From NCBI GenBank assembly GCA_028821475.1, contig JAPPGB010000047.1:1136-65135 (forward strand): a stretch of 64,000 nt of DNA, in the 5' to 3' direction. Source of the DNA: Spirochaetaceae bacterium (GTDB lineage: Bacteria; Spirochaetota; Spirochaetia; SZUA-6; Bin103). The notes below the pieces were generated by a model. That model ran no database searches. It worked only from the letters and a program-made list of their open reading frames with translations, and had not been told where the DNA came from. The translations under genes and the position numbers were made by a program. Of this stretch, positions 21,244 to 26,914 are shown piece by piece. Numbering within the stretch: position 1 is the stretch's first letter; each line of letters begins with the position of its first letter.

Positions 21244-22011
21244 TCAGTCCCGGTAGGATGGGTCTTCGCGGTCCAGAATCGCTTGCAGTTCGCGGAAGTG
21301 GTCGTCGCTCAGATCCGGATAGTCGAGCCACTGCCGGCGTGTCGTCGCGGCCACCTGGTCGCAGGGGATCTTCAGTTCGCGCCCGGTTTGCAGCGCCGTG
21401 ATGTAGGTCTCGCAGGCGCGCTCGAAGTAGTACAGGTCGTCGAACGCCTGCGCAACCGTTGCGCCGATCACCATCACCCCGTGGTTGCGCATCAGCAGAA
21501 TCGGGTTGTCGCCGGCCATCGACGCCACCCGCTCCGCCTCGTCGTCCAGGCCCATGCCCTCGAACTGCTCGTCCACGGTCACGCGGCCCCAGAAGCGCAT
21601 CGCGTTCTGGTCGATCGGCGGCAGCGCCGGGTCGGCGAGGCAGGCGAGCACCGTGGCGTAGCGCGAGTGCACGTGCAGCAGGCAGCGCGCGTGCGGCACC
21701 CGGCGGTGGATGGCACCGTGCAGCCCCCAGGCGGTGGGGTCGGGGGCGTCCGGGCGCTGCATCGTGGAGTCGTCCTCGGCATCGAGCAGGAGCAGCTCGC
21801 CGGCCCGGATCAGCGAGAAATGGCGCCCGCGCGGGTTCATCAGGAAGCGCGTGCCGGCGTCGTTCACGGCCAGACTGAAGTGGTTGGCCACCGATTCGTG
21901 CAGGTCGTAGCGTGCCGCCCACCGAAACGCGCAGGCCAGCGCGATCCGCTCCTCGGCGTATTCCATTTCGGGATGACCGTGAGCTGCAAGTGCGAGTCGG
22001 TCGGCCGCCAT
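21244..22011 (-). CDS. Class II aldolase/adducin family protein
   Basis: The N-terminus is ERIALACAFRWAARYDL...NHFSLAV. His-rich metal site (HVHS, HGAIH). Start uncertain (M at 22011 or 21969; ORF open to 22113). Confidence 0.7.
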   Translation of the reverse strand: MAADRLALAAHGHPEMEYAEERIALACAFRWAARYDLHESVANHFSLAVNDAGTRFLMNPRGRHFSLIRAGELLLLDAEDDSTMQRPDAPDPTAWGLHGAIHRRVPHARCLLHVHSRYATVLACLADPALPPIDQNAMRFWGRVTVDEQFEGMGLDDEAERVASMAGDNPILLMRNHGVMVIGATVAQAFDDLYYFERACETYITALQTGRELKIPCDQVAATTRRQWLDYPDLSDDHFRELQAILDREDPSYRD

Positions 22012-22247
22012 GATCTCGACACGGTAGCCCCGTCGTCGGTGCATGTCCACACCCGAGCTCATGGTGTGGTTTGCTCCGCCGGCAGGCGGAGGGTCGTCGG
22101 CGTGCTCCTCCAACGCGAGTCGCGCCGTACCAACAGCGGACTGGCGCTCTTTCGCCTGGAACCTGTACCGCTTCGTAGGCCACGAGTTGCCCGCTGCCCG
22201 GTCGACGCCCTTCCGATGCTCGGCCCAACGGTGCTACGCTGAGTGCT

Positions 22248-22475
22248 ATGGACTATCGAGAGATCATCACTATTGAGCCGGGGAAGCGTGGGGGCAAGCC
22301 ATGTATTCGGGGGCTCCGCATCACCGTCTACGATGTTCTCGAATACTTGGCGTCAGACATGACTCGGGAAGAGATACTCGCCGATTTACCAGATCTTACA
22401 CCGGATGACATCAAGGCATGTCTATCTTTCGCGGCTGACCGAGAGCGCCGATTCGTCTCGGTACCGGCCGAGTGA
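22248..22475 (+). CDS. DUF433 domain protein (putative antitoxin)
   Basis: 75 aa, ...RGGKPCIRGLRITVYDVL..., with its stop overlapping the DUF5615 start. Local GC is lower than the flanks. Confidence 0.8.
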   Translation: MDYREIITIEPGKRGGKPCIRGLRITVYDVLEYLASDMTREEILADLPDLTPDDIKACLSFAADRERRFVSVPAE

Positions 22476-22804
22476 AGCTGCTCTTCGACCAGAATCTGTC
22501 GCCGCGATTGATCGACCGCCTTGCGAGTATGTATCCCGAATCCGCACATGTTCGGGATCTTGGTCTACACCGAGCCGTGGACCGGCAGGTGTGGAAACAC
22601 GCAGGTGAGAACGGTTACGCCATTGTCTCGAAGGACTCCGACTTCCATCAGCTGAGCTTTCTGTACGGACACCCGCCGAAGGTGGTTTGGATCCGGAGGG
22701 GTAACTGCACCACTAATGAAATCGAGGCGATACTGCGCGAGTTCTCCACACGGTTGGCTGAGTTCGACGCGGACGAGGCCGCATCGTACTTGGCAATCTC
22801 GTAG
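22472..22804 (+). CDS. DUF5615 (PIN-like/Mut7-C) protein, putative toxin partner of DUF433
   Basis: 110 aa, MKLLFDQNLSPRL...VSKDSDF. This is the canonical DUF433-DUF5615 pair arrangement. Confidence 0.75.
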   Translation: MKLLFDQNLSPRLIDRLASMYPESAHVRDLGLHRAVDRQVWKHAGENGYAIVSKDSDFHQLSFLYGHPPKVVWIRRGNCTTNEIEAILREFSTRLAEFDADEAASYLAIS

Positions 22805-22881
22805 TAGCTCGCAATCGAATCTGCGTGCCTTGGCCATCTGCCACGGCCATCGGCCGGAGCCGGGCGATTCGCGACGATGTA

Positions 22882-25098
22882 CTACCGGCTGCCAGCCGGC
22901 GAACCGGTTGCGGTCACGAACAGGGTGGCGACGCGCCAGTCGAGCACGGCGCCGAGGCGGTTTTCGAGTCCGCGGCGCAGGGCCGCGACTGCCGCGGCGG
23001 AGACGCCGGCGGTCAGCAGCACGTGGGCGTAGGAAGTGGCGGGAACCTGCGCGCCGTTCGGGAACCAGCGTTCCAGGAGGGTGCGCGTCACTGCCAGCCG
23101 GCCCGGCTGTTCCACGATCTCGGCGGTCAGGCCGGTGACGTGCGGCGCCAGGGCGGCCTCGACTTCGGCGCCGGTGAGTGCCGGGCGGGCGCCGTAGTGC
23201 GCTTCCTCGGCGGCGGCGACGGCGGCGCGGTCGGTCTCGTCCAGCCCGTCGAGGTCCAGCACCTCGTGCAGCCGCGGAGCCCGTTCCGGCAGCGGCTCGG
23301 CCAGCACCAGGCGTCCGCCCTCGGTCAGGGCGCCGGCGGCGGCCAGCACCAGCGCTTGCCCACCGTCCGCCCGCCACACGCCGCGGCCCACCACGGCGTC
23401 GAAGCACACCGCCGGGTCGATCTGCGCCGGCTCCGCCACCAGGGTGGGCTGCATGGCGGCGGGCAGGGCGGCCAGTTGCTCGCGCACGCCCTTGGCCTCC
23501 GGCGGCGCCAGCGCCCACACGCCGCCCTCCGGGCAGCGGCGCAGCAGTTCGAAGGTGAGCAGGCCGCTGCCGAGCGCCAGGTCCAGTACCACGCCGTGGC
23601 GCTGCAGGCCGGCCGCCGCCACGATGCGGTCGCGCTCATCGGCCAGCCGCCCGGCGGCGTCGGACAGCGCCCGCTCCAGCCAGCGGTCCAGGTCGCGCTG
23701 CACGTCCTTGCCGGCGTTGGTCAGGATCTCGCCGCCTTGCTCGGTGCCCTCCCAGGCGGCCGCCAGGTTGGCTTCGCGGCGGCGCGCCACCTGGTCGCGG
23801 ATGGCGCGCTCGTGGCCGGTGTCGCCGGGCTGGTAGAACACCCGCCCCTGCAACTCCGACGGCAGGTACTGCTGCGCCACCCAGTGGTCGGTGAAGGCGT
23901 GCGGATACTGGTAGCCGGCGCCGTGGCCGAACCCCTCGGCATCGCGGCTCCCGTCGCGCAACGACGACGGCACCTGCGCCTCGCGCTCCGCCTCCACCGC
24001 GCGCAGCGCGTCGAAGAAGCCCAGGGTGCTGTTGCTCTTCGGCGCCGTGGACAGGTACAGCGCCGCCTCGGCCAGGTGGAAGCGCCCCTCCGGCAGGCCC
24101 ACGTAGTCGAACGCGGCGGCGCAGGCGGTCACCACGCCGATCGCCGCCGGGTCCGCCATGCCGATGTCCTCGGACGCCAGGATCAGCATGCGCCGGAACA
24201 GGTAGCGCGGATCCTCGCCCGCGTACACCATGCGCGCCATCCAGTACAGCGCCGCGTCGGGATCGGAGCCGCGCACGCTCTTGATGAACGCGCTGATGGT
24301 GTCGTAGTGGGCGTCGCCCTCCTTGTCGTACAGCACCGCGCGGCGCTGGATCGACTCCTCCGCCACCAGACGGTCGACGCGCACCACGCCGTCCGCGCCG
24401 GCCGGCGTGGTGGTGACCGCCAGTTCCAGGGCGTTGAGCAGGCTGCGCGCGTCGCCGTTGGCCACGTTCAGCAGGTGCTCCATCGCCTCCTCGCTTACCT
24501 CGGAGCGGTAGCCTCCCAAACCGCGCTCGGTGTCGGCCAGCGCCATCCGGGCCACCCGCTCCAGCTCCTCGCGCCCGAGCCCCTGGAGCTGGAAGATGCG
24601 GCTGCGGCTCACCAGCGGCTTGATCACCTCGAAGTAGGGGTTCTCGGTGGTGGCGCCGATCAGCACGATGGTGCCGTTCTCGACACTCGGCAGCAGCGCG
24701 TCCTGCTGCGCCTTGTTCCAGCGGTGCACCTCGTCGATGAACAGGATGGTGTGCTGGCCGTGCAGGTCGCGCGCCTCGCGCGCCGCGGCGATCGCCTCGC
24801 GGAGCTGCTTCACCCCGGCGAGCACCGCGTTCAGCGCCGTGAAGCGGGCGCGGGTGGTGCCGGCGATCACCTGCGCGAGGGTGGTCTTGCCGGTGCCGGG
24901 CGGCCCGTAGAAGATCAGCGACGAGAGCTGGTCTGCCTGGATCGCGCGCCGCAGCAGCCGCCCCGGCCCGACGATGTGGTCCTGGCCGACGAATTCGTCC
25001 AGCGTGCGCGGCCGCATGCGCGCCGCGAGCGGCGCGCCGCTCGCCTGCTCGGCCGCGCCGCGGGCCTGAAACAGGTCGCGATCTTCAGCTCTCGCCAT
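22882..25098 (-). CDS. rarA: Replication-associated recombination protein A (RarA/MgsA AAA+ ATPase) fused to a C-terminal class I SAM-methyltransferase-like domain
   Basis: Walker A GPPGTGKTT, Walker B LFIDEVHR, and the RarA C-terminal GYQYPHAF...QQYLP. A further about 290 aa follow with the VLDLALGSG motif I and motifs II/III of Rossmann methyltransferases. Confidence 0.8.
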   Translation of the reverse strand: MARAEDRDLFQARGAAEQASGAPLAARMRPRTLDEFVGQDHIVGPGRLLRRAIQADQLSSLIFYGPPGTGKTTLAQVIAGTTRARFTALNAVLAGVKQLREAIAAAREARDLHGQHTILFIDEVHRWNKAQQDALLPSVENGTIVLIGATTENPYFEVIKPLVSRSRIFQLQGLGREELERVARMALADTERGLGGYRSEVSEEAMEHLLNVANGDARSLLNALELAVTTTPAGADGVVRVDRLVAEESIQRRAVLYDKEGDAHYDTISAFIKSVRGSDPDAALYWMARMVYAGEDPRYLFRRMLILASEDIGMADPAAIGVVTACAAAFDYVGLPEGRFHLAEAALYLSTAPKSNSTLGFFDALRAVEAEREAQVPSSLRDGSRDAEGFGHGAGYQYPHAFTDHWVAQQYLPSELQGRVFYQPGDTGHERAIRDQVARRREANLAAAWEGTEQGGEILTNAGKDVQRDLDRWLERALSDAAGRLADERDRIVAAAGLQRHGVVLDLALGSGLLTFELLRRCPEGGVWALAPPEAKGVREQLAALPAAMQPTLVAEPAQIDPAVCFDAVVGRGVWRADGGQALVLAAAGALTEGGRLVLAEPLPERAPRLHEVLDLDGLDETDRAAVAAAEEAHYGARPALTGAEVEAALAPHVTGLTAEIVEQPGRLAVTRTLLERWFPNGAQVPATSYAHVLLTAGVSAAAVAALRRGLENRLGAVLDWRVATLFVTATGSPAGSR

Positions 25099-25109
25099 GA
25101 CCGATGTAG

Positions 25110-25412
25110 TCAGTTGTCGCCTGGTTCGGACGGATCAAGAAGACGAGCACTGTGGTGGATCGTCAGGAGCTGGACTTCATCGCCAATCAGCCGATAGACG
25201 ATTCGGTAGTTGCCGTGAAGCATTTCCCGAATGTCGTCCCGATTTGACTCGGGTACAACTCTGCCAACCTGCGGAAACGATTCCAATGCTGATGCCTTAT
25301 CGACTATCTGGGTCGCGAAAACCTGGGGATAATTTCGGGAGTCGCGCGCGATCTAGGCACATATTGCTGCTACGTCTGCAAGCGCTTGCGGAGTCCATCT
25401 CAATCGAGCCAC
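25110..25412 (-). pseudogene. parE: ParE/RelE-family toxin with in-frame amber codon after codon 19
   Basis: GTG at 25412-25410 overlaps the antitoxin stop. The N-terminus ARLRWTPQALADVAAICA is followed by TAG (25353-25355), then IARDS...VFATQIVDKASALESFPQVGRVVPE...YRIVYRLIGDEVQLLTIHHSAR (ParE core). There is no alternative start downstream of the amber. Confidence 0.55.
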
Positions 25413-25597
25413 CTACGTAACCGCTGTCGTGCCTCGTCATGTGACACGGTAAGGCCGGCATCTGCTTGTTCTATGCCCTTTTCGATTTTGTGGAGCAGGA
25501 AGAGCCTCTCTATCGCATCCTCGATACTTGCATTCTCCGGCAGATTGCGAATCAAGCTTTCCATTTTCGATTTCATTGTTTTCATTGTTGATGGCAT
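25400..25597 (-). CDS. parD: ParD-like antitoxin (RK2 ParD-type)
   Basis: ...ESLIRNLPENASIEDAIERLF...ADAGLTVSHDEARQRLRRWLD resembles RK2 ParD (QYALERLF...GLAGKVST...). Start uncertain (candidates 25597, 25585, 25576, 25564). Confidence 0.5.
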   Translation of the reverse strand: MPSTMKTMKSKMESLIRNLPENASIEDAIERLFLLHKIEKGIEQADAGLTVSHDEARQRLRRWLD

Positions 25598-25683
25598 AGG
25601 ATTGAACCGGATCAGGAGTATAGCGGGGTCATCATCCGCCGTCCACTTGCGCCCGGGCGGCCAAGGCCGGTACCATCCGCGGC

Positions 25684-26436
25684 GTGACATCATCGACGAC
25701 CGACAGGATCGCCGTGCAGAGCTACTGCTTCCGCGGCTTTGCCAGCAACGAAGAGGTCGCCGCCAAGGCCGGGGAGATCGGGCTGGCGGCGGTCGAGCCG
25801 TGTGGCGTGCACGTCGACTTCGCCGACGAGGCCGCGCAGGACGCGGCCATCGCCGCGTACCGCGACGCCGGCGTGCGGCTGGTGAGCTGCGGAGTCAACT
25901 CGATCCGCGGCGACGGCAGCGGCGCCGAGTGCTACTTCCAGTTCGCCCGCAAGGCCGGCCTGCCGGTGATCAGCGCCGACGTCACCCCGCCGGCGTCGTG
26001 GGACACGTTCGCCGCCGCCGAGCGCCTGGCCGAGCAGTACGACGTGAACGTGGCGCTGCACAACCACGGCGGCGCGCACTGGCTCGGCAACGCGCAGATG
26101 CTGGAGGAGGTGTTCCGGCGCACCGGCCCGCGCATCGGGCTGATGTTGGACACCGCCTGGGCGATCGACTCGCGCGAGGACCCGGTCAAGATGGTGCGCC
26201 GCTTCGGCAACCGGCTGATGGGCGTGCACCTCAAGGACTTCGTCTACTCCCGCAACCGCGAACCGGTGGACGTGGTGATCGGCACCGGCATCCTCGACCT
26301 GCCCGCCCTGGTCACGGCACTGGGCGACGTCGGCTTCGACGGCGTGCCGATCATCGAGTACGAGGGCGACGTCAACAACCCGGTCCCGGCGCTCACCGAG
26401 TGCGTAAAGGAAATCGCCGCCGCCTGGAACCTGTAG
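25684..26436 (+). CDS. Sugar phosphate isomerase/epimerase (xylose-isomerase-like TIM barrel)
   Basis: 250 aa with conserved H/D/E metal ligands in TIM-barrel spacing (ALHNHGGAHW, MLDTAWA, EYEGD). Confidence 0.75.
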   Translation: MTSSTTDRIAVQSYCFRGFASNEEVAAKAGEIGLAAVEPCGVHVDFADEAAQDAAIAAYRDAGVRLVSCGVNSIRGDGSGAECYFQFARKAGLPVISADVTPPASWDTFAAAERLAEQYDVNVALHNHGGAHWLGNAQMLEEVFRRTGPRIGLMLDTAWAIDSREDPVKMVRRFGNRLMGVHLKDFVYSRNREPVDVVIGTGILDLPALVTALGDVGFDGVPIIEYEGDVNNPVPALTECVKEIAAAWNL

Positions 26437-26482: not shown

Positions 26483-26914
26483 TCAGCTCGGAGCAGCGAG
26501 GGAGTTCAGAAACGCCGCGGGGGTCAGGATTGGAATCCCGCGAAACGGAGTCATGTCCAGAAGGTGGCGATCCCCAGTGATCAGGCAGTCTGCCTCGCCA
26601 ACCATCGCCGTCTCCAGGAACTGGTCGTCCTTCGGGTCCAGGCATCCGAGCTTGGCCCCGGTGATCGAAACGCGTTCGGAAACGCCCAGGAGCTGGACAA
26701 GGAACGGTGTCCTTATTGTCCGACTCACGTAGCGGTCGAACTTCGGGCGAAAGAGGCGGCTGTGCAGCTCCTTGATGGTCTCGTTGGCGAACAGGAGCAC
26801 GCCGCCCGCTTGCCGTATCGTGTCCACAACGGCGCGCGGCGTTCCCGGAGGTCTCAGTGCTGAGCTGATCAGGACGTTGGTGTCGACAACGACTCGCTCA
26901 ACTGTCATCCGCAA
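26483..26914 (-). CDS. PIN-domain toxin (TIGR00305-like)
   Basis: VVDTNVLISS...CLITGDRHLL. It overlaps the upstream Phd/YefM-type antitoxin gene. Confidence 0.75.
   Translation of the reverse strand: MRMTVERVVVDTNVLISSALRPPGTPRAVVDTIRQAGGVLLFANETIKELHSRLFRPKFDRYVSRTIRTPFLVQLLGVSERVSITGAKLGCLDPKDDQFLETAMVGEADCLITGDRHLLDMTPFRGIPILTPAAFLNSLAAPS

Follow-up and report, generated by a model that had tools for sequence, protein, structure and literature searches.

The rarA locus and its RarA/MgsA module

The window, that is, the whole 64,000-nucleotide stretch of DNA analysed here, carries on its minus strand an open reading frame (22882–25098) that starts with ATG, contains no internal stop codon and encodes a RarA protein with a long C-terminal extension. 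The features of the gene are listed below.

22882–25098, minus strand: long-form RarA, whole gene; 738 aa plus stop codon, uninterrupted ORF (NCBIfam NF009881)
23764–25098, minus strand: RarA/MgsA module, residues 1–445 (phmmer against PDB; column identity among orthologs)
24595–24918, minus strand: AAA+ ATPase core, residues 61–168 (Pfam AAA, PF00004, E 5.3e-17)
24880–24906, minus strand: Walker A, GPPGTGKTT, residues 65–73 (translation)
24721–24747, minus strand: Walker B, ILFIDEVHR, residues 118–126 (translation)
24598–24657, minus strand: GATTENP and SRSR segment, residues 148–167 (invariance in homologs)
24271–24510, minus strand: AAA lid, AAA_assoc_2, residues 197–276 (PF16193, E 1.8e-27)
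23782–24270, minus strand: MgsA_C domain, residues 277–439 (PF12002, E 1.2e-60, positions 1–165 of 167)
23614–23763, minus strand: junction, residues 446–495 (conserved RRREAxLAA helix end, low-confidence stretch 452–478, then the N-terminal helices of the C-terminal domain)
23263–23613, minus strand: predicted class I methyltransferase-like Rossmann core, β1–β5, residues 496–612 (AF2, Foldseek, weak profile matches)
23557–23592, minus strand: motif I-like loop VVLDLALGSGLL, residues 503–514 (codons checked against the DNA)
22885–23262, minus strand: predicted helical cap inserts and β6–β7, residues 613–738 (AF2 secondary structure, conservation counts)

A 790-aa ORF on the opposite strand (22825–25197, plus strand) was rejected as a high-GC artefact. 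No second copy of rarA was found within the 64-kb window.

A phmmer search against PDB matched the N-terminal module to 8g28 (E 2.9e-104) and to E. coli RarA (3pvs, E 8.2e-104), in the latter case with residues 22–439 aligned to 14–433 of 447. Pfam identified AAA, AAA_assoc_2 and MgsA_C, as well as RuvB_N (PF05496) on residues 28–147 (E 4.6e-15). The motifs from which a complete RarA had been predicted, i.e. Walker A and B, the sensor and the tail motif GYQYPHAF...QQYLP (residues 395–413), were all found. In 32 full-length homologs G65, P66, P67, G68, G70, K71, T72 and T73 of Walker A were invariant, as were L119, F120, D122, E123, V124, H125 and R126 of Walker B, the segment from G148 to P154, and S164, R165, S166 and R167. 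By analogy with the clamp-loader clade of AAA+ proteins, GATTENP is presumably sensor 1 and SRSR the arginine-finger segment. MgsA_C is the tetramerisation domain in E. coli RarA, as described for 3PVS; as a monomer it was poorly modelled here (pLDDT 28–58 in the full-length AF2 model). Biochemically, RarA/MgsA proteins are marked by tetramerisation, contact with the C-terminal tail of SSB and an ATPase activity that depends on DNA. The full-length model was mediocre (pTM 0.47) and uninformative on interdomain packing. Residues 1–445 are a complete RarA/MgsA AAA+ ATPase in which every ATPase motif is present.

The first 440 residues have the ATPase motifs and MgsA_C in common with the RarA proteins of E. 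coli (RarA/MgsA, 3PVS) and B. subtilis. Canonical RarA ends at about 425–450 aa, whereas the window protein runs about 290 residues further into a predicted methyltransferase-fold domain, hereafter the C-domain. These residues, as had been proposed, are truly extra, because solved RarA proteins are 426–447 aa long, in line with the expected 420–450 aa, and align only to residues 22–439.

The fusion is conserved across phyla

When the 738-aa protein was used as a tblastn query, all 80 related genomic loci aligned across both modules, and in 76 of them one continuous HSP covered both modules in a single frame. The other four loci (L039, L058, L062, L080) contain frameshift breaks, located elsewhere than at the junction. 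Complete orthologous ORFs (n = 64) are 736–780 aa long, and column identity at the junction is 0.65 in the ortholog alignment. In the full-length AF2 model the junction has a pLDDT below 50 at residues 452–478, with helices at 466–478 and 481–496; the stretch around 452–478 is probably flexible.

The original prediction had called for a check that no frameshift or missing stop codon separates two genes at nt ~23780–23790. Since the fusion is conserved across phyla and 76 of the 80 loci read through in frame, such an error is excluded. That a sequencing frameshift or the loss of a stop codon merged neighboring rarA and methyltransferase genes has a vanishingly small probability: a few assemblies are indeed broken (the four loci above, P0195, P0196 and P0198) and L082 was split by the gene caller, but the single frame holds throughout in several phyla, the curated full-length HMM (736 positions) matches end to end, the C-domain frame of L082 continues back through the RarA tail (...GYMYPHAYRDHWVAQQYLP...RRREAQLAAMIESE...), and the short 'stand-alone' matches inspected start with the linker or the RarA tail and look like fusion fragments. 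L082 was also considered as a natural split gene (447 + 304 aa) and rejected, the break being an upstream indel and not a stop at the domain boundary. L081 is a contig of 1.2 kb. Among the short matches inspected in the representative search, none was a convincing stand-alone C-domain; the start methionine was missing or the start lay inside the linker or the RarA tail. The fusion of RarA with the C-terminal domain is genuine and conserved.

Long-form RarA is a catalogued family

The protein matched NCBIfam NF009881 (PRK13341.1-2, 'AAA family ATPase') with 975.4 bits against a cut-off of 651, residues 8–729 aligning to profile positions 2–732 of 736. NF009881 is a curated equivalog with the sister models NF009880, NF009882 and NF009883 (PRK13341 series). 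CDD gives PRK13341 the title 'recombination factor protein RarA/unknown domain fusion protein'. At 90% identity, public databases contain over 100 clusters of full-length proteins, named 'AAA family ATPase' or 'putative ATPase', and 232 clusters at 50% identity were found with E < 1e-30. The taxonomic distribution of the fusion comprises Spirochaetia MAGs (94% identical), Chloroflexota, Cyanobacteria, Tectimicrobiota, Latescibacterota and one gammaproteobacterium; the cyanobacterial, Chloroflexota and other homologs fall within NF009881 as well. Both modules are inherited together in at least six bacterial lineages. The view that the fusion is unusual and perhaps new is contradicted by its own curated equivalog models and the many public full-length clusters.

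In architecture and length the window protein is the same as the rest of the NF009881 family; structurally there is no difference, and the member described here comes from an uncultured, GC-rich lineage with the label Spirochaetia. The gene is, with near certainty as to identity and architecture, an intact and ordinary member of this long-form RarA family (NF009881/PRK13341.1-2). Curated databases already contain the architecture, with no function assigned to the C-domain, so the gene does not represent a new type of system. A literature search returned nothing relevant on PRK13341, on RarA/MgsA with a methyltransferase domain or on cyanobacterial RarA, and the C-domain appears to be unstudied.

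The C-domain is predicted to adopt a class I methyltransferase fold

Modelled with AF2, the C-domain (residues ~466–738) reached a pLDDT of 84 and a pTM of 0.77, with a pLDDT of 85–96 in the Rossmann core; in the full-length model its pLDDT was likewise 80–94. The order of the predicted strands β1–β7 agrees with the usual seven-strand Rossmann-like methyltransferase fold. Foldseek returned more than 1000 matches at E ≤ 0.001, many SAM-dependent methyltransferases (SAM-MTases) with a probability of 1.00, and all 50 of the matches listed are SAM-MTases. The best were 3ccf, 2p35 (Tam) and 2yqz (E 2.5e-10 to 5e-9, TM 0.51–0.65). Sequence profiles gave a weak match to the PDB methyltransferase 3mq2 (E 0.0018) and weak NCBIfam matches to CbiT (E 0.008) and a daptide methyltransferase (E 0.023), both far under their cut-offs. 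Pfam found no domain in residues 434–738 of the window protein, and two orthologs (P0201 and P0229) exceeded the gathering thresholds for Methyltransf_11/12/23/25/31. The methyltransferase-like nature proposed for the extra domain is borne out by the models and the structural matches, from which we confidently predict a helically capped domain of the class I methyltransferase fold.

With the Tam-like and Methyltransf_11/12/23/25 enzymes (2p35, 3ccf, 2yqz) the C-domain would share the seven-strand fold and helical cap inserts, together with a motif I-like hhDhxxGxG and the 'FD' of β4. However, identity to these enzymes is just 16–18%, and among the matches inspected the C-domain was seen only in fusion with RarA.

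The cofactor site is patchily conserved

The Rossmann methyltransferase motifs on which the original prediction relied fared unevenly: VLDLALGSG is present at residues 504–512, but many family members lack some of the canonical residues for cofactor binding. Compared with the motif I consensus hh(D/E)hGxGxG, the first glycine is replaced by alanine in the window protein and the second and third are present; across the family the first-glycine position is mostly N. Family-wide conservation is 79% for D506 and 96% for G512. For the central glycine, G510, it is 62% (80 of 129 representatives). Another 41 of the 129 carry D, R, N, T, H or a similar residue there (29 of them D or R), and these 41 retain R609, E631 and W678, most of them also the GRN motif. 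At the end of β2, where class I methyltransferases usually have an acid that binds the ribose hydroxyls, position 531 is A in 65, V in 40, T in 18 and E in 3 of 147 representatives, so that only these 3 are acidic; the window protein has A, its nearest acidic residue being E534, three residues on. An acidic residue at the β2 end is also missing in some genuine methyltransferase families, such as the cyclopropane-fatty-acid/mycolic-acid synthase type. The motif III position after β3, at which an acid contacts adenine N6 in class I methyltransferases, is E556 in the window protein and is acidic in just 39 of 154 representatives (25%). The window protein itself retains D506, G510, G512, E556 and D567, and since its cofactor loop is fairly canonical in this respect, it may bind SAM or SAH. 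Directly before β1 lies the almost invariant R500-H501, which may anchor the carboxylate of SAM.

The best-conserved positions of the C-domain, namely R609 (153/154), E631 (149/151), W678 (144/146), P551 (149/150) and W721 (135/141), fall outside the classical SAM motifs, and R609, E631, W678 and W721 are specific to the family when set against the Tam-like enzymes. E631, Y635, W678/F679, Y690 and W721 lie in the cap region (residues 613–738), and R609 just upstream of it. This pattern of conserved residues in a putative cleft suggests a family-specific ligand or partner.

Among 65 orthologs, column identity is 0.83–0.88 in the RarA module versus 0.48–0.66 in the C-domain, and dN/dS is 0.12–0.22 versus 0.22–0.51. 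The C-domain evolves at roughly double the rate of the RarA module, yet is under purifying selection.

A binding or catalytic role of the C-domain

RarA proteins elsewhere bind and remodel DNA ends and gaps in an ATP-dependent manner, at stalled forks and post-replication gaps (PMC5389604, PMC6101539, PMC8735627). The N-terminal module of the long form would have the same role at these sites, and the C-domain would be an accessory module on RarA. Its family-wide function would reside in a cleft that the cap lines together with the segments following β4 and β5 (R572, E601, P604, R609, E631, Y635, W678, Y690, W721), a pocket whose geometry is deduced from sequence position only. Most likely the C-domain would serve to regulate or tether RarA through a bound ligand or partner, methyl transfer not being obligatory.

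The relaxed cofactor site, i.e. the substitutions at positions 510, 531 and 556, the location of the best-conserved positions outside the classical SAM motifs and the faster evolution of the C-domain count for a binding or regulatory rather than catalytic role, to which we give an even chance. Several observations count against it: the cofactor residues retained by the window protein, the orthologs that pass Pfam methyltransferase thresholds, the nearly invariant R500-H501 and the existence of genuine methyltransferases without the β2-end acid. A conserved cleft would be expected of a true enzyme with a conserved substrate, too.

Such partial loss resembles, by functional analogy and with no homology claimed, METTL14 and DNMT3L. 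These are catalytically degenerate methyltransferase-fold partners, in which the fold is under selection while residues of the cofactor site drift. In the C-domain, by contrast, degeneracy would be partial and lineage-dependent.

The strongest competing explanation, which we consider plausible but clearly the less probable, is an active SAM-dependent methyltransferase that RarA delivers to stalled forks or gaps, in line with the new activity at stalled forks suggested in the original prediction. Its substrate would be a small anionic molecule or a protein, such as a recombination mediator or SSB. The nearest folds are those of small-molecule and carboxyl methyltransferases (Tam and its kin above), a negatively charged substrate would fit the conserved R500, R572 and R609, and the preserved motif I of the window protein, the high conservation of G512, the Pfam scores of P0201 and P0229 and the purifying selection on the C-domain are all in keeping with an enzyme. 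However, about one-third of the family clusters have exchanged the central motif I glycine for D, R, N or T while keeping the rest of the domain, the β2-end and motif III acids are rare, and the window protein itself reaches no Pfam methyltransferase model. Neither the gene context nor the literature searched offers support. From the residues at the cofactor site, methyltransferase activity of the C-domain seems doubtful.

Gene context was analyzed by all-against-all clustering of the flanking ORFs of 64 loci. No operon partner common to different phyla emerged, and the flanking ORFs gave no hint of a substrate for the C-domain. Synteny was confined to Chloroflexota, with an M20-type amidohydrolase at 24 loci, a CofD-like gene at 18 and an RNase PH-like gene at 10 (names from our reading of the ORF sequences).

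It is highly improbable that the C-domain is a DNA methyltransferase or that the gene belongs to a defence or restriction-modification-like island, in spite of toxin-antitoxin cassettes on its flanks and of the MADS-system protein mad2, which the methyltransferase core weakly matches in PADLOC (E 7e-6): (D/N/S)PP(Y/F/W) and PC/ENV motifs and a target-recognition domain are lacking, the mad2 match spans about 125 of 492 residues and only the generic Rossmann core, the cassettes have a lower GC content (0.59–0.63 versus 0.71–0.77) and are variably present in close relatives, in which the synteny of rarA with its metabolic neighbors is preserved, and the neighbors in other phyla are, by our ORF reading, the housekeeping genes named above. 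The segment after β4 is FDAVVGRGV in the window protein and FDxIxGRN in the family consensus. PADLOC gave no near full-length defence match, returning only P-loop fragments and mad2 (E 6e-5 to 7e-6, ~125 residues). Both the DNA-methyltransferase identity, without PP or PC motifs or an extra DNA-recognition domain, and the defence island, with low-GC, variable cassettes, syntenic rarA surroundings and a generic PADLOC match, were rejected.

Taken as a whole, a catalogued long-form RarA with an accessory, binding or regulatory C-domain is the best explanation, and one we consider slightly more likely than not. The eukaryotic RarA orthologs Mgs1/WRNIP1 likewise combine the core with an accessory targeting or regulatory domain, a zinc finger that binds ubiquitin; located at the N-terminus, this domain sits at the opposite end and is unrelated in fold and ligand.

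Few DNA-repair ATPases are as conserved as RarA, whose molecular role is under debate. The architecture of the long form is known and the function of its C-domain is unassigned; what is added here is that the 'unknown' domain has a predicted class I methyltransferase fold, with a cofactor site that appears patchily conserved and putative cleft residues that are conserved. It is unlikely that the C-domain works as a SAM-binding module, be it catalytic or sensory, and gives the long form an activity that the paradigmatic RarA proteins of E. coli and B. subtilis lack. If it did, a replisome or recombination protein might be methylated at stalled forks, or, alternatively, RarA action might be coupled to the SAM status of the cell in Cyanobacteria, Chloroflexota and related phyla. 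As an accessory domain found lineage-wide in Cyanobacteria, Chloroflexota and uncultured phyla, the C-domain could be a handle on where RarA is recruited and what regulates it.

RarA module and C-terminal extension

The long rarA gene forms one ORF at 22882-25098 (-), with an ATG start, 738 codons and no internal stops. Its product carries the following RarA features:

AAA domain (Pfam), residues 61-168
Walker A, GPPGTGKTT, residues 65-73, invariant in 32 full-length homologs
Walker B, FIDEVHR, residues 120-126, invariant in 32 full-length homologs
AAA_assoc_2 domain (Pfam), residues 197-276
MgsA_C domain (Pfam), residues 277-439

The GATTENP and SRSR motifs are likewise invariant across the 32 homologs. 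Residues 1-445 aligned over nearly the whole length with the solved RarA 8g28 (426 aa, E 2.9e-104) and with E. coli RarA 3pvs (447 aa, E 8.2e-104). Since this module alone spans the solved proteins, about 290 residues are extra, and the original prediction of a complete RarA followed by an extension of this size was borne out. No second rarA was found within the 64-kb window. An antisense ORF of 790 aa (22825-25197, +) was rejected as the usual mirror ORF of a gene with ~72% GC, and several further ORFs, 100-300 aa long, that overlap rarA were likewise dismissed as high-GC mirror ORFs.

Integrity of the fusion

A genome collection was scanned with a C-terminal profile as a single peptide pattern; at least 178 species genomes contained a relative, and the best 80 loci were retrieved. 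In tblastn, the 738-aa query aligned continuously and in a single frame through both modules at 76 of the 80 loci; in the remaining four, frameshifts at other places interrupt the alignment. Complete orthologous ORFs (n = 64) measured 736-780 aa. This conservation excludes the suspected frameshift or missing stop at the junction (near nt 23780-23790). At one related locus (L082) gene calling had yielded two overlapping genes, a RarA of 447 aa and a second one of 304 aa. The frame of the latter extends unbroken backwards through ...GYMYPHAYRDHWVAQQYLP...RRREAQLAAMIESE, hence a naturally split gene was rejected in favor of an upstream indel. The short proteins inspected from the representative search were fragments beginning in the linker or the RarA tail, with no convincing stand-alone C-domain among them.

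Frameshifts break the long rarA in several close or distant relatives (proteins P0195, P0196 and P0198; loci L039, L058, L062, L080 and L082), so that the C-domain is often no longer in frame. Most likely these are indel errors of the assemblies; occasionally, the C-domain may really be decaying.

Fold of the C-domain

A Pfam search gave no match in residues 434-738, and profile-sequence searches returned only weak methyltransferase (MTase) matches (3mq2, E 0.0018; CbiT, E 0.008). An AlphaFold2 model of the C-domain, built from a 13-sequence alignment, was confident (mean pLDDT 84, pTM 0.77), residues 16-30 of the fragment being disordered. Its elements follow the order β1 (VLD), αA, β2 (VWAL), αB, β3, β4 (FDAVVGR), αD, β5 (GGRLVLAE), helical insert, β6, second helical insert, β7. 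All 50 Foldseek matches listed from the PDB were class I SAM-methyltransferases. Those ranked highest, 3ccf, trans-aconitate methyltransferase 2p35 and TTHA0223 2yqz (E 2.5e-10 to 5e-9), resemble the C-domain in fold (TM 0.51-0.65), yet share just 16-18% identity with it. In a full-length model the C-domain was again well folded (pLDDT 80-94), while MgsA_C was poorly modelled and nothing reliable emerged on domain packing. Residues 452-478 had low confidence and hence probably form a flexible tether. We conclude that both fusion and fold are real.

A catalogued family

The whole protein scored 975 bits against the equivalog model NF009881 of NCBIfam (PRK13341.1-2; 'AAA family ATPase', cut-off 651), matching profile positions 2-732 of 736 with residues 8-729, and also passed the sister model NF009883. 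Every homolog tested belongs to NF009881. Well over 100 clusters, 735-786 aa in length, came up in a full-length search; they go under the names 'AAA family ATPase' at NCBI and 'putative ATPase' at JGI, and the nearest show 90-94% identity. In CDD, PRK13341 is entered as 'recombination factor protein RarA/unknown domain fusion protein'; full-text literature searches found no paper on this fusion. In two orthologs, P0201 and P0229, the C-domain exceeds Pfam gathering thresholds (Methyltransf_11, 12, 23, 25 or 31), so for part of the family the architecture is visible with standard tools. The original prediction was right about fusion and fold, but a full-length curated model with this many clusters does not agree with its view of an unusual arrangement: the RarA-MTase-like architecture is not new but already known and curated.

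The taxonomic check that had been suggested places the fusion in Spirochaetia, where one MAG (L001) shows 94% protein identity and whose MAGs probably represent the lineage of the window, and in Cyanobacteria (Coleofasciculaceae and Leptolyngbyaceae). Among the best 80 loci, about 65 bear Chloroflexota-type names, six belong to Entotheonella/Tectimicrobiota, and one MAG each is latescibacterotal and gammaproteobacterial.

Genomic neighborhood

Comparison of the flanks of related loci revealed no neighbor gene conserved across phyla. The surroundings of rarA in the window are:

21244-22113 (-), class II aldolase/adducin-family gene, flanking rarA
22248-22804 (+), toxin-antitoxin-like pair DUF433 (75 aa) and DUF5615/PIN_10 (110 aa), immediately downstream of rarA
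25110-25693 (-), ParE-toxin remnant and small ORF, the remnant ending 12 nt ahead of the rarA ATG
25684-26436 (+), xylose-isomerase-like TIM-barrel gene, flanking rarA
26483-26914 (-), PIN_3-domain toxin gene (143 aa), the third toxin-antitoxin-type element within 5 kb

The aldolase and TIM-barrel genes also bracket rarA in related Spirochaetia MAGs. The DUF433-DUF5615/PIN_10 pair (GC 0.61-0.63 versus 0.71-0.77 in rarA) is present in L001 and missing at the same spot in loci L002-L007, and so looks like a mobile cassette. The ParE remnant (58 aa) covers profile positions 41-88 of 89, its N-terminal half being out of frame or missing. Together with the preceding small ORF (25400-25693; no Pfam match), which may be an antitoxin, it is probably a decaying toxin-antitoxin module. 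Being lower in GC and variably present in relatives, these cassettes are insertions around a housekeeping gene and form no functional unit with rarA. PADLOC returned just generic P-loop and MTase-core fragments for the rarA product.

Conserved residues and possible role of the C-domain

Residues at classical cofactor positions were counted in 65 full-length orthologs and ~130-155 representatives of 50%-identity clusters.

Conservation in the C-domain (representatives)
D506, motif I acidic residue: 104/131
G510, central motif I glycine: 80/129
G512, last motif I glycine: 126/131
531, end of β2, normally acidic and ribose-bound: A/V/T 123/147, acidic 3/147
P551, just before β3: 149/150
556, motif III, after β3: acidic 39/154
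R572-N573, after β4: 132/155 and 116/155
R609, cleft, after β5: 153/154
E631, cap: 149/151
W678, cap: 144/146
W721, β7: 135/141

Good conservation extends to PEGG-VW, which lies ahead of and within β2, and to R500-H501, ahead of β1. The Asn of the post-β4 'GRN' is Gly at residue 573 here (nt 23380-23382), the motif reading GRG in the window protein and its nearest relative, P0161. Among seven close relatives, dN/dS was 0.22-0.51 in the C-domain versus 0.12-0.22 in the RarA module; column identity among 65 orthologs was 0.48-0.66 versus 0.83-0.88. The C-domain is under purifying selection, looser than that on the RarA module.

This pattern suggests that the family-wide function would sit in a cleft that is bordered by the cap and the loops following β4 and β5, a canonical SAM site not being strictly required. 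The window protein retains D506, G510, G512, E556 and D567, so binding of SAM or SAH remains plausible. These intact residues would also suit a genuine catalytic methyltransferase, and some bona fide MTase families likewise lack the β2 acid. Methyl transfer is possible, but it lacks family-wide support: position 510 is D, R, N, T, H or similar in 41/129 representatives, and the variants listed retain R609, E631 and W678, alignment gaps aside. Weighing the canonical residues and the β2-acid-free enzymes, we give a mainly binding or regulatory role an even chance or slightly better, and regard genuine catalysis as less likely. A DNA-methyltransferase role is unlikely, as (D/N/S)PP(Y/F/W), PC/ENV motifs and a target-recognition domain are absent.

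At the expense of ATP, RarA remodels the DNA ends, gaps and SSB-coated ssDNA to which it binds, in replication restart and post-replication gap repair (PMC5389604, PMC6101539, PMC8735627). With its intact ATPase module, the N-terminal part of the long form would presumably act likewise. Its MTase-fold domain, on a probably flexible tether and with a conserved cleft, would bind a partner protein or a small ligand, which may be SAM or SAH in lineages whose loop is intact, and such binding may modulate or localise RarA.
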